Origin: an uncultured Gammaproteobacteria bacterium
GTDB taxonomy: Bacteria > Patescibacteriota > Patescibacteriia > Patescibacteriales > GWC2-42-12
Assembly: GCA_964560005.1 (NCBI GenBank)
Contig: CAZLKB010000003.1
Location: 174,951 to 238,950 of the forward strand
DNA length: 64,000 nucleotides
Direction: 5' to 3'
Shown: piece by piece, positions 34,195 to 34,936 of the stretch
Layout: each line of letters opens with the position of its first letter
How positions within the stretch are numbered: the first letter of the stretch is position 1
Notes under the pieces: generated by a model
Database searches by the model: none
Told to the model about the DNA's origin: nothing
The model's input: the letters and a program-made list of their open reading frames with translations, nothing else
Translations under genes and position numbers: made by a program

Positions 34195-34316
34195 ATTATT
34201 ACAATAATTTTTAATTTTTAATTTAAAATTTTAAATGAATTTTTAATGATTTAAATATTAAAAATTCAATCAAAATTCAAAATTCATAAATCAAAATTTT
34301 TTAATTTTTAATTATC
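34195..34316. repeat. AT-rich word dyad (GAATTTT / AAAATTC family)
   Basis: aaatgaatttttaatg ... aaaattcaatcaaaattcaaaattcat. Confidence 0.6.
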
Positions 34317-34383
34317 TGTCATTCCCGCGAAAGCGGCCTGTTTTCCTCTTCTGCGCCGAGGTCAGCACCGAGGAGTAATCCAG
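34317..34383. repeat. TGTCAT-type element, extended form (left end of the atpG-atpD insert)
   Basis: tgtcattcccgcgaaagcgg...gcgccgaggtcagcaccgaggagtaatccag. Confidence 0.7.
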
Positions 34384-34407
34384 AAATTCCATACCTTCGA
34401 CGAGAGA

Positions 34408-34436
34408 TTGACTAATTATTAATTATATAATATATT
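34408..34436 (+). promoter_or_regulatory. Promoter antisense to the atp operon
   Basis: TTGACT - 17 nt - TATATT. Confidence 0.55.
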
Positions 34437-34508
34437 ATATTGTTAGGTTAATATCAATCGCACATTCCAACAAAACGGTGGCGACCGAATACGCGAAAAG
34501 GAAAAATC

Positions 34509-34706
34509 ATGAGAACTGTCTTGGTAAAAGGTACATATGCTCCCTTCCTTATGAGCGAAAAAGCCGCGAAACGTGGCAAGCACATTATTCTTCTTGGGCA
34601 CAAAGCAATCGGAACCGCTAACGCCAAGAAAGGCAACGGCCGTGCTTTGTCTAACGGCAGGAAAAATAGGAACTTCAGGCATGTCCCGGAAACCCTACTT
34701 GATTAA
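34509..34706 (+). CDS. Orphan 65-aa highly basic protein, antisense within the atp operon
   Basis: AAGGA 8 nt before ATG; 14 Lys/Arg versus 3 Asp/Glu; followed by a clean terminator; no family recognised. Confidence 0.4.
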   Translation: MRTVLVKGTYAPFLMSEKAAKRGKHIILLGHKAIGTANAKKGNGRALSNGRKNRNFRHVPETLLD

Positions 34707-34728
34707 CGCCAAGTGGCCTCGTTCTGCC

Positions 34729-34760
34729 GCCACCGACTTCAAAAGTTGGTGGCTTTTTTT
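34729..34760 (+). terminator. Rho-independent terminator of the antisense cassette
   Basis: gccaccgac / gttggtggc stem (one G-U) followed by T7. Confidence 0.8.
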
Positions 34761-34823
34761 ATTTAAAGAACTTTCTTCTCTTTCTGTAATGCCGGGGCGG
34801 AGCGGAACGATAGCATGTTTTAC

Positions 34824-34890
34824 TGTCATGCCGGACTTGATCCGGCATCTCATGAATTAAATGAGATCCTGAATCAAGTTTAGGATGACA
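34824..34890. repeat. Composite TGTCAT...ATGACA inverted pair (three hairpins)
   Basis: tgtcatgccggacttgatccggcatc - ctcatgaattaaatgag - gatcctgaatcaagtttaggatgaca. Confidence 0.85.
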
Positions 34891-34936
34891 GATTAGAGCT
34901 CCTTGCAGTCGCTCCCTCCAGTATAACAACACCACA

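Follow-up and report, generated by a model that had tools for sequence, protein, structure and literature searches.

Why should an ATP synthase operon carry 742 bp of DNA between the genes for two of its F1 subunits? The window analysed here, a stretch of 64 kb from a candidate-phyla-radiation bacterium, contains the cellular atpBEFHAGDC operon. Pfam identifies atpG (F1 gamma, 34937-35866, minus strand; ATP-synt, E = 2e-89) as the upstream neighbour of the spacer, with atpA (35954-37516, minus strand, also assigned from Pfam) beyond it, and atpD (F1 beta, 32788-34194, minus strand; ATP-synt_ab, E = 2e-74) as the downstream neighbour. The spacer itself, at 34195-34936, is among the largest gene-free stretches of the window, where the median gap is 123 bp. 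Sequencing run SRR12133404 contains the same sequence. A previous, sequence-only reading of this DNA described a promoter, a small ORF and a terminator set between inverted sequences, and every feature that it listed, the 742-bp spacer included, is found where that reading placed it. Several questions follow. Is the insert a mobile element? Does it encode a protein? Is it peculiar to this genome? What might it do to the operon in which it sits?

On balance we favour a description of the spacer as three dispersed palindromic repeats, REP-like in character, together with a unique antisense unit that occupies a recurrent slot in atp operons. The first repeat, nearest to atpD, is an AT-rich palindrome of about 110 nt (34198-34308), 80% self-complementary and with an RNA fold z-score of -2.7. 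Copies are present at 16491-16578, 18030-18170, 37520-37627, 41597-41727 and 50736-50872. The second, element A (34316-34384, plus strand), belongs to the TGTCATTCC...AATCCAG family, other members of which occur in the window at 10662, 10803 (minus strand), 20782 and 41509, and a copy with 87% identity over 69 nt lies in the atpA-atpG spacer of a related locus, L082. It folds weakly, with z-scores of -0.6 and -1.6. Element B, on the atpG side (34823-34891), is a 69-nt palindrome of the form CTGTCAT...ATGACAG with z-scores of -6.6 and -7.7 on the two strands; copies without any cargo occupy 35878-35946, in the atpA-atpG spacer, and 54334-54412. The string CTGTCATKCC is matched 11 times compared with 4.0 expected. 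Element B had been described as a composite of three hairpins. There is indeed structure at 34823-34891, but it consists of one long imperfect palindrome. Rfam, at the gathering threshold, identifies nothing in the whole window other than tRNA-Leu at 19129, and a search of the spacer at E <= 10 returns chance matches to miRNA and sRNA models alone, the best of them (E = 0.12) an miRNA model placed on the palindrome and none of them in the core.

The sequence-only reading had taken TGTCAT...ATGACA to be terminal inverted repeats (TIRs) around a cargo, which would allow a non-autonomous, MITE-like cassette to have brought promoter, ORF and terminator into the operon. The outermost hexamers are inverse complements of each other, the unit is missing from close relatives, and in loci L024, L102 and L107 the cassettes are likewise flanked on either side by TGTCAT-type palindromes. 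However, the two hexamers belong to two different repeat elements. Within the 69-nt palindrome the pairing partner of ATGACA (34885-34890) is the TGTCAT of that same palindrome (34824-34829), which has cargo-less copies of its own, whereas element A is of a different type and ends in AATCCAG, as do its stand-alone copies. No target-site duplication was found, the flanks being AATTAT before CTGTCAT and ATTAGA after ATGACAG with no adjacent direct repeat. Nor did further copies of the whole unit appear: the 64 kb contain the core once, and none of the other atp loci fetched contains it. Finally, the sequence that is shared between cassettes of different genomes has its outer limits at the promoter and the terminator tail and leaves the TGTCAT elements outside. 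This anatomy indicates that the unit is not a TIR-bounded transposon, and we regard the MITE-like explanation as already contradicted and highly improbable.

The flanking elements, taken by themselves, do resemble REP/BIME or MITE-like repeats. Both the TGTCAT-type and the AT-rich 110-nt elements form imperfect palindromes with a length of 30-110 nt, and they occur in numerous intergenic copies, within operons as well, and across related genomes. They differ in that they flank the unit without defining it and in constituting a Patescibacteria-specific sequence family.

The unique core (34408-34771) has a GC content of 46.9%, compared with 42.8% for the window and 27% for the flanking spacer. 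It is made up of a plus-strand promoter, a predicted transcript of about 315 nt that includes a 65-codon ORF, and a strong terminator. The predicted promoter is of the sigma-70 type, TTGACT-17-TATATT (34408-34436, plus strand), agrees with the consensus at 10 of 12 positions and would start transcription near 34443, against the direction of the atp genes. Promoter-like hexamers are common in AT-rich DNA and the region contains five promoter-like matches compared with 2.9 expected, which is no enrichment on its own. The putative transcript (34443-34760, plus strand) would end at an intrinsic terminator (34729-34760, plus strand), in which a hairpin at 34729-34753 is followed by T7. The hairpin has 11 pairs and a folding energy of -17.7 kcal/mol (z = -4.8), none of 200 shuffled sequences folds equally well, and the terminator is far beyond chance. 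It is unidirectional, since a T-run is missing on the atp-sense side, and the spacer contains only weak candidates for terminators on the sense strand. The terminator stops 177 bp before atpG, so the predicted transcript stays clear of both coding regions. Sequence prediction agrees with the proposal of the sequence-only reading that the spacer holds a discrete antisense unit with a promoter and terminator of its own. The RNA fold of 34440-34765 is not significant (MFE z = -1.45 on the plus strand, -1.94 on the minus strand). A closing helix formed by a 14-nt pairing of 34476-34489 with 34722-34735 was considered and dropped, because the spacer holds 61 such inverted pairs. In the other fetched loci no similarity to the core was detected beyond its ends, in DNA or in six-frame comparisons.

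Does the core encode a protein? The predicted transcript has one plausible ORF, of 65 codons at 34509-34706 on the plus strand, from which a basic peptide with 14 Lys or Arg and 3 Asp or Glu residues might be made. The ORF has no detectable relatives. There is no match in Pfam, NCBIfam, PHROGs or the PDB, no homologue in a word-indexed search of 5.8 billion clusters and none in a full phmmer scan of 1.84 billion representatives. A six-frame search of every fetched locus with the five overlapping ORFs of the core gave no match, and homology to a basic 76-residue antisense ORF of L162, a 74% relative, was rejected at both protein and DNA level. When the core is shuffled with its dinucleotides kept, 5.1% of the shuffled sequences contain an ATG-initiated ORF of 65 codons. 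The codon score is the best among the five overlapping ORFs, yet it falls below 97% of real gene fragments. The AF2 model (pLDDT 58, pTM 0.23) is too poor for a fold search to be usable. An AAGGA ribosome-binding site had been noted and is present 6 nt before the ATG, but it is not diagnostic in this genome. A Shine-Dalgarno-like motif precedes three of the 48 window genes, where the background rate is 8%, and it is missing from every atp gene, atpD included. Since the genome barely uses such sites the AAGGA is no evidence of translation. Given an ORF without a homologue, with atypical codon usage, a low-confidence model and marginal length significance, the unit may be non-coding. We also considered whether the ORF might be a type I toxin, that is a small hydrophobic peptide, and rejected this on the basis of its maximum 19-residue hydropathy of 0.28 and its 14 Lys and Arg residues. 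Such a reading may apply only to loci of relatives with hydrophobic cargo (15 of 25 cargo ORFs).

Public annotation assigns a different gene to this DNA. An ORF of 79 codons (34446-34682, minus strand) is called on a Logan contig and in the NCBI record, and in view of its operon orientation it could be supposed a real gene, co-transcribed with the atp operon and encoding an extra small subunit or assembly factor. Against this, the codon score of -0.063 lies under those of all 3,000 sampled real-gene fragments and is typical of shadow ORFs. The ORF forms a singleton cluster, has no family match and no homologue at the atpG-atpD junction of any relative, and it is placed exactly opposite the promoter-to-terminator unit on the other strand. 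The gene call is probably spurious, and an additional subunit or assembly factor encoded here is scarcely credible.

Is the unit peculiar to this genome? It is of the insertion type and missing from close relatives, with atpG-atpD spacers of 6-99 bp compared with 742 bp here. Listed by AtpG identity the values are 30 bp (77%), 99 bp (71%), 82 bp (70%), 27 bp (69%), 26 bp (67%) and 6 bp (66%), and many close relatives have a spacer of 0-30 bp and no internal promoter. In 22 of 70 non-redundant Patescibacteria loci more than 400 bp separate atpG from atpD, and spacers of this size occur at 12 of 181 comparison junctions (atpH-atpA, atpA-atpG and atpD-atpC). This marks the junction as a hotspot (odds ratio 6.5, p = 1.4e-6), with p-values that are optimistic because related lineages are not independent samples. 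The large spacers usually hold an antisense promoter, a short ORF and a terminator, an arrangement that recurs at the atpG-atpD junction in many related genomes. There is a clear preference of strand. A strong antisense terminator is present in about 18 loci and a strong sense terminator in three (binomial p = 0.0015), whilst promoters matching at 10 or more of 12 positions point in the antisense direction in 17 spacers and in the sense direction in five. Rfam gave no match for the spacers of 16 related loci and, at E <= 1, none for the antisense unit of L084.

Units in different genomes have their ends in common, and not their cargo. The promoter and the start of the leader in the window share 82% identity with the cassette of L168 over 45 nt (E = 2e-7) and 87.5% with that of L169 over 32 nt. 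The terminator tail matches L168 at 89% over 27 nt, and the cargo is unrelated. Loci L024 and L102 share a terminator module at 98.7% over 76 nt with flanking atp genes at 84-88%, and here the cargo cannot be aligned. The cargo ORFs of relatives have GGAGG-type sites and, in 15 of 25 cases, a transmembrane-like segment; they are mutually unrelated and without Pfam families, and one of 136 amino acids is a singleton among 5.8 billion proteins. These ORFs look like real genes, and it is mainly by analogy with them that we lean narrowly towards translation of the 65-codon ORF. Versions lacking an ORF also occur, with a putative structured transcript of about 150 nt in L084 and about 60 nt between promoter and terminator in L004.

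A further shared feature is a conserved 17-mer, TTTTTTATTTAAAGAAC on the plus strand (GTTCTTTAAATAAAAAA on the atp-sense strand), at 34755-34771 directly after the terminator hairpin. Exact copies stand beside different hairpins in L084, L086 and L168, all of them in atp spacers and on the same strand, which amounts to four independent matches in 1.16 Mb compared with 0.0018 expected. The form GTTCTTTAAATAAAAAA is that of the window's clade, the form GTT[CG]TTTGGAAAA that of Moranbacteria-like genomes. Within atp clusters 13 of 91 terminators bear the motif, outside them one of 89 in 191 kb; the sampled loci are atp operons with a few kb of flank, and confinement of the motif is measured against this approximately 191 kb of other DNA. 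The single motif-bearing terminator outside the clusters is also just downstream of an atpG gene. Several alternative origins for the motif were rejected. It is not a remnant of an ancestral atpD ribosome-binding region, as it is missing from the short (empty) spacers, nor is it a general feature of terminators, since those elsewhere in the window and in the flanks of the loci lack it. A phage origin was considered for both forms. The 17-mer has at least 120 viral matches, and these are attributed to chance since nearly all lack a neighbouring hairpin and the collection is very large and AT-rich. The Moranbacteria-type motif matches two viral contigs, within coding sequence in both. For the window unit itself, a reading as an integron gene cassette was rejected. 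Such cassettes are promoterless, lie in one orientation and have an attC site with cores of the form RYYYAAC...GTTRRRY; a promoter is present in the unit, GTTCTTT, the conserved motif, departs from GTTRRRY and beyond the hairpin there is no inverse core.

These shared ends bear on whether the spacer is simply debris, grown from repeats and a decayed gene fragment, in which the promoter- and terminator-like sites are leftovers or due to chance. Repeats clearly accumulate in the spacers of this genome, the core is without homologues, the promoter-like matches are not enriched in the region and the length of the ORF is only marginally unusual. It is difficult, however, to reconcile debris with the strength of the terminator, with a promoter whose orientation and spacing are right and which resembles those at the equivalent position in L168 and L169, with a 17-mer found unchanged in three other genomes, or with the same architecture in dozens of loci and a strong strand bias. 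We consider non-functional debris very unlikely.

What might the unit do to the operon? A promoter-like site, TTGATA-17-TATATT (34429-34457, minus strand), opposes the antisense promoter and is directed toward atpD, with a predicted transcription start site (TSS) near 34422. The -10 hexamers, at 34431-34436 on the plus strand and 34434-34429 on the minus strand, overlap within a perfect 16-nt palindrome (34425-34440) and the divergent TSSs, at positions predicted from sequence, are 21 bp apart. Opposing sites matching at 9 or more of 12 positions accompany six of 17 cassette promoters compared with 3.9% of control windows. The promoter region is probably sequence-symmetric and bidirectional, and it may also drive atpDC, with transcription starting approximately 228 nt upstream of atpD. 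Most relatives lack a strong promoter in the sense direction downstream of their cassette, so such a bidirectional step would not be general. Bidirectional promoters, in the summaries of Warman et al. 2021 given in PMC10268837 and PMC12825309, have divergent TSSs separated by 7-25 bp, most often 18 bp. As far as those summaries describe them, the window case is similar in having -10 hexamers that overlap on opposite strands within a palindrome, predicted TSSs at a comparable separation, and one arm directed toward an mRNA (atpDC) with the other toward a short transcript. It differs in being a predicted case, in having good -35 hexamers on both arms and in the dedicated strong terminator that closes the short arm.

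In a rival explanation, what is conserved and functional would be an internal bidirectional promoter for atpDC and a terminator that shields atpG from the divergent transcript made as a by-product, and the DNA between them would be a transcribed no-man's land in which ORFs are incidental or newborn and the 65-codon ORF is no functional gene. Competition between promoters, converging transcription, or base-pairing between the antisense RNA and read-through atp mRNA, with processing of the GadY kind, would then account for any effect on the operon. The overlapping -10 hexamers and the enrichment of opposing promoters at cassette promoters are consistent with this, as are conserved ends around content that is not conserved, the ORF-less versions in L084 and L004, cargo without relatives, the weak coding signals of the window ORF and the presence of motif-bearing terminators, among the sampled loci, in atp spacers only. 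However, most cargo ORFs of relatives span the interval and begin with ATG behind a well-positioned GGAGG, in many cases with evident transmembrane segments, and such cargo can hardly be dismissed as incidental. A spacer of 0-30 bp without an internal promoter suffices for many close relatives, and the predicted antisense RNA reaches neither atpG nor atpD. We hold this explanation to be possible, if doubtful.

GadY of E. coli is a cis-encoded antisense sRNA that lies opposite the gadX-gadW intergenic region. The unit resembles it in that a small transcript, started by a promoter of its own and stopped by its own terminator, would lie opposite an intergenic part of a polycistronic mRNA, and would have perfect complementarity to any read-through transcript. 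The resemblance does not extend to the transcribed sequence of the atp units, which is not conserved, and most relatives' units carry translatable ORFs. A cis-antisense regulator was the other suggestion of the sequence-only reading, and a regulatory role is kept alive as something the unit may have by the conserved frame around variable content, the ORF-less relatives and the bidirectional-looking promoter.

We return to the preferred reading, an antisense unit in a recurrent slot. Phage morons are independent transcription units added between the genes of phage operons (PMC3594210), and we interpret the window unit as a moron-like accretion. A predicted promoter and terminator of its own enclose a single small ORF, the insertion separates two genes that lie side by side in relatives, the base composition is somewhat unlike that of the surroundings, and the cargo is without an assigned function and varies between genomes. 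Unlike morons, the unit resides in a core cellular ATP synthase operon that is neither phage nor prophage; PHROGs gave no matches and the matches to viral contigs are chance. The atp units are also consistently antisense, they recur at one preferred junction across a phylum, and those of different genomes share ends and a motif, a feature that has not been described for morons. The slot lies mostly at the gamma-beta junction of Patescibacteria atp operons, with unrelated cargo between common ends. With respect to mechanism, we infer that transcription of the atp genes could read through the antisense terminator, which is without a T-run on the operon strand, and units that carry a terminator would for this reason be tolerated only in the antisense orientation.

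A stronger version of the slot can be formulated, namely a dedicated antisense 'expression slot' tied to ATP synthase expression, in which a frame is kept or exchanged whilst the payload turns over and the motif acts as a signal. The frame would comprise the symmetric promoter, also feeding atpDC, and the insulating terminator followed by the conserved motif, and it would be kept by selection or spread via site-specific exchange. The payload would turn over rapidly, the slot serving either as a place where new small proteins, many of them membrane proteins, arise or as one where interchangeable mini-genes dock, and the motif would be a recombination or processing signal. We think this version unlikely.

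Searches of the accessible literature for atpG/atpD antisense elements and for palindromic repeats of Patescibacteria gave nothing relevant, and no description of an antisense-slot arrangement was found there. For the window itself the outcome is corrective. There is no TIR-bounded transposon, the minus-strand public gene call is probably wrong and the 65-codon ORF is unproven. More broadly, an essential and highly conserved operon of a whole bacterial radiation repeatedly hosts small convergent units at one junction. If transcription is confirmed, the junction would provide a comparable locus for the origin and exchange of new small proteins in reduced genomes and for the tolerance of operons to internal antisense units, and a locus at which to consider how expression of the beta and epsilon subunits is set without Shine-Dalgarno-based tuning.

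We note finally that in cyanobacteria and chloroplasts the atp cluster is split, the break occurring between gamma and beta. The gamma-beta junction is where the F1 genes become separable transcription units. Here, in contrast, the two genes remain adjacent and co-oriented, atpBE has not been relocated and the break is filled by a convergent mini-unit.

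The atp operon of the window runs on the minus strand, where Pfam identifies atpD (32788-34194), atpG (34937-35866) and atpA (35954-37516). The atpG-atpD spacer (34195-34936, 742 bp) ranks with the longest intergenic gaps of the window, where the median is 123 bp. A Logan contig is 100% identical to the window across the spacer, and the AtpG of the window is also recorded on a 266-kb NCBI contig. Sequence scanning and folding recovered every feature that the sequence-only reading had listed: a predicted plus-strand promoter, TTGACT-17-TATATT (34408-34436, matching 10 of 12 consensus positions), a 65-codon ORF on the same strand (34509-34706, with 14 lysine plus arginine and 3 acidic residues), a predicted plus-strand terminator consisting of an 11-pair hairpin (34729-34753, -17.7 kcal/mol, z = -4.8) then T7, and a 69-nt hairpin composite (34823-34891). 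The unique core (34408-34771) matched no Rfam family and a search by folding found no significant RNA structure in it. The best-supported reading is of a moron-like, convergent mini transcription unit in a recurrent slot, the gamma/beta junction of Patescibacteria atp operons, with the flanking REP-like repeats unrelated to it.

An AtpG query retrieved 161 atp loci from species-representative genomes and metagenomes, and AtpG homologues gave nine more; loci are denoted by handles such as L084. The closest AtpG sequences all derive from Patescibacteria (candidate phyla radiation) MAGs labelled Parcubacteria, Falkowbacteria or 'Patescibacteria group', with best identities of 77, 74, 71 and 70%. 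Comparison of the junction, as had been proposed, reveals that the unit is absent from most of the nearest relatives. Their spacers are 30, 99, 82, 27, 26 and 6 bp at AtpG identities of 77, 71, 70, 69, 67 and 66%, respectively. In a set of 78 non-redundant Patescibacteria loci, 70 allowed the atpG-atpD spacer to be measured and 22 of these have one longer than 400 bp, compared with 4/54 for atpH-atpA, 4/70 for atpA-atpG and 4/57 for atpD-atpC (odds ratio 6.5 against these three junctions, p = 1.4e-6, an optimistic value since the lineages are not independent).

TGTCAT...ATGACA had been proposed to form terminal inverted repeats around a cargo. This model fails because the two ends come from different repeat types, no target-site duplication was found in the flanks and the core is single-copy in the 64-kb window; of the suggested search for further copies, only the flanking repeats proved multi-copy. 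On the right, ATGACA closes the stem of CTGTCAT...ATGACAG, a self-contained palindrome whose two strands each fold into a single long hairpin (z = -6.6 and -7.7); copies of this 69-nt palindrome occur without cargo in the atpA-atpG spacer (35878-35946) and at 54334-54412. A different repeat type, TGTCATTCC...AATCCAG, supplies the left element (34316-34384); stand-alone relatives of it are found at 10662, 10803, 20782 and 41509, and the atpA-atpG spacer of L082 has a copy 87% identical over 69 nt. A third repeat, an AT-rich palindrome of about 110 nt (34198-34308), has at least five further intergenic copies in the window (37520-37627, 41597-41727, 16491-16578, 50736-50872 and 18030-18170), built of units such as AATTTTTAATT and AAAATTCAAAATTCA. 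The spacer is thus a patchwork in which dispersed REP-like repeats surround a single unique unit.

The AT-rich repeats often lie immediately upstream of genes, atpD and atpA among them. Dispersed TGTCAT(T/G)CC...GGAAT(C/G) hairpin repeats, single or composite, are found at 10662-10694, 10713-10803 (minus strand), 20782, 35878-35946, 41509-41570 and 54334-54412, and TGTCAT-type hairpin elements also occur in many Patescibacteria loci, e.g. L024, L029, L030, L096, L102, L107 and L109. An independent short-read assembly of this stretch (L081, Logan SRR12133404, a 3838-bp contig, identical in sequence) stops inside the AT-rich repeat at about 34258. Repeats of this kind break assemblies exactly where atpG meets atpD, and metagenomes may therefore under-count large spacers.

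The large spacers of relatives repeat the architecture and orientation seen in the window, namely palindromic repeats, antisense terminator, antisense ORF (55-136 codons, mostly with a GGAGG-type site) and antisense TTGACA-type promoter, in that order. Strong terminators are antisense in about 18 loci against three sense, and promoters matching at least 10 of 12 positions are antisense in 17 spacers against five. ORF-less antisense units are known in L084 and L004; that of L084 (4917-5107, likewise between atpG and atpD, with promoter TTGACA-16-TATTAT) has a predicted transcript of about 150 nt, of which a domain of about 100 nt is closed by a 17-bp helix then U7 (-42.6 kcal/mol), and it matched nothing in Rfam. 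Inserts of another class at atp junctions lie in sense orientation and carry no terminator. These small, selfish or nuclease-like genes (DUF559, GIY-YIG, PD-(D/E)XK or PDDEXK_3, the four-helix '23S rRNA intervening sequence' protein, ORF6N, CYTH-like and NYN), of which only DUF559 and PDDEXK_3 were labelled from precomputed Pfam and the others by eye, are located in L162 (4973-5332 and 7347-7763), L084, L103, L104, L116, L097, L004, L007, L002, L098 and L001. A terminator-bearing unit would be tolerable inside the operon only if it did not stop the operon's polymerase, hence antisense, and the division between antisense inserts with and sense inserts without a terminator fits such a read-through constraint. 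L162 (AtpG identity 74%) has a DUF559 gene in sense orientation and, in antisense, a unit made up of the promoter TTGACC-17-TACAAT, a basic ORF of 76 codons and a terminator; this ORF was compared with the 65-codon ORF as a candidate relative and rejected, no relation being found.

The 2.2-kb atpG-atpD spacer of L030 (4961-7199) contains a row of four or five antisense units, every one having a GGAGG site, ORF, terminator and variant of the motif described below. Two of the units are paralogues (51% identity), and the slot seems to have grown in tandem. The antisense promoter of L169 (7296-7335) has its -35 hexamer just 6 nt away from the start codon of atpD, so a separate atpD promoter would need to overlap it.

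What is conserved is the frame rather than the cargo. The 25 cargo ORFs extracted are mutually unrelated bar one paralogous pair; 15 have a transmembrane-like segment, none matches Pfam at gathering threshold, none recurs in the other fetched loci, and a 136-residue example is a singleton among 5.8 billion proteins. L024 and L102, with atpG and atpD 84-88% identical, share a terminator module (98.7% over 76 nt) and similarity resumes from the -35 hexamer outwards, with unalignable cargo between. Likewise the window and L168 (AtpG identity 67%) are 82% identical at the promoter and start of the leader (45 nt compared, E = 2e-7) and 89% identical at the terminator tail (27 nt), these ends enclosing the 65-codon ORF in one and an unrelated 100-codon ORF in the other.

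Directly 3' of the terminator hairpin is a 17-mer, TTTTTTATTTAAAGAAC (34755-34771, plus strand), which on the atp-sense strand reads GTTCTTTAAATAAAAAA. Exact copies occur in the atpG-atpD spacers of L084 (4920) and L168 (6997) and the atpA-atpG spacer of L086 (2430), in every case with the same orientation to the operon, giving four independent matches in 1.16 Mb against 0.0018 expected. AtpG identity among these four genomes is only 60-67%. The 17-mer adjoins hairpins of different sequence in the window, L084 and L086; the hairpin of L168 is decayed. A variant in Moranbacteria-like genomes reads GTT[CG]TTTGGAAAA, followed by an A-run and hairpin on the operon strand. In a survey of 180 terminator-like hairpins from Patescibacteria loci and the window, the motif accompanied 13 of 91 inside atp clusters, all antisense, and one of 89 outside (191 kb), the lone case lying just 3' of atpG on a truncated contig. 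It was absent from the empty spacers checked. Matches in viral contigs, considered as a link to phage, were dismissed as chance. Candidate roles for the conserved frame are promoter, insulator, antisense pairing or recombination site.

Does the 65-codon ORF encode a protein? We regard it as a putative coding sequence only. It matched no family and no homologue was detected in the protein resources searched, among them 1.84 billion representatives scanned in full with HMMER. Structure prediction, another check that had been suggested, gave a poor single-sequence AlphaFold model (pLDDT 58). An ATG ORF of this length arises in 5.1% of core shuffles. On a codon-usage score trained with 39 of the window's genes, it is the best of five overlapping ORFs, above 84% of shadow ORFs and below 97% of real gene fragments. 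Gene callers passed over it, and the public annotation (NCBI and Logan) instead has a 79-codon hypothetical protein on the operon strand (34446-34682, minus), which is probably wrong given its singleton status and codon usage like that of a shadow ORF. The AAGGA assigned as ribosome-binding site is present and carries no weight, since Shine-Dalgarno-like motifs precede only three of the 48 window genes (background 8%) and none of the atp genes (32240-39992). A/T-rich tracts precede the start codons of the window. Shine-Dalgarno sites are hardly used in this genome; the cassette ORFs of several related genomes do have strong GGAGG sites.

The predicted promoter is symmetric in sequence. Predicted -10 hexamers on the plus (34431-34436) and minus (34434-34429) strands overlap within a perfect 16-nt palindrome (34425-34440), each with a good -35 at 17 bp (TTGACT and TTGATA, respectively). 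The predicted divergent start sites are separated by 21 bp; sequence-symmetric bidirectional promoters are defined by a separation of 7-25 bp (PMC10268837). Opposing promoter-like sites matching at least 9 of 12 positions at the same geometry accompany 6 of the 17 cassette promoters, compared with a rate of 3.9% in control windows. This geometry and enrichment suggest that the unit may also supply a start for atpDC, in which case the minus-strand arm would initiate transcription about 228 nt upstream of atpD.

We consider the unit of moderate interest, mainly for the pattern seen across the lineage and for the unexplained motif, and not for a transposon model. Outside the atp operon, a second large gap (20644-21366, 723 bp) contains a plus-strand 62-codon ORF (21015-21203) with two hydrophobic segments and terminator-like hairpins on either side, which may be another small-protein gene.
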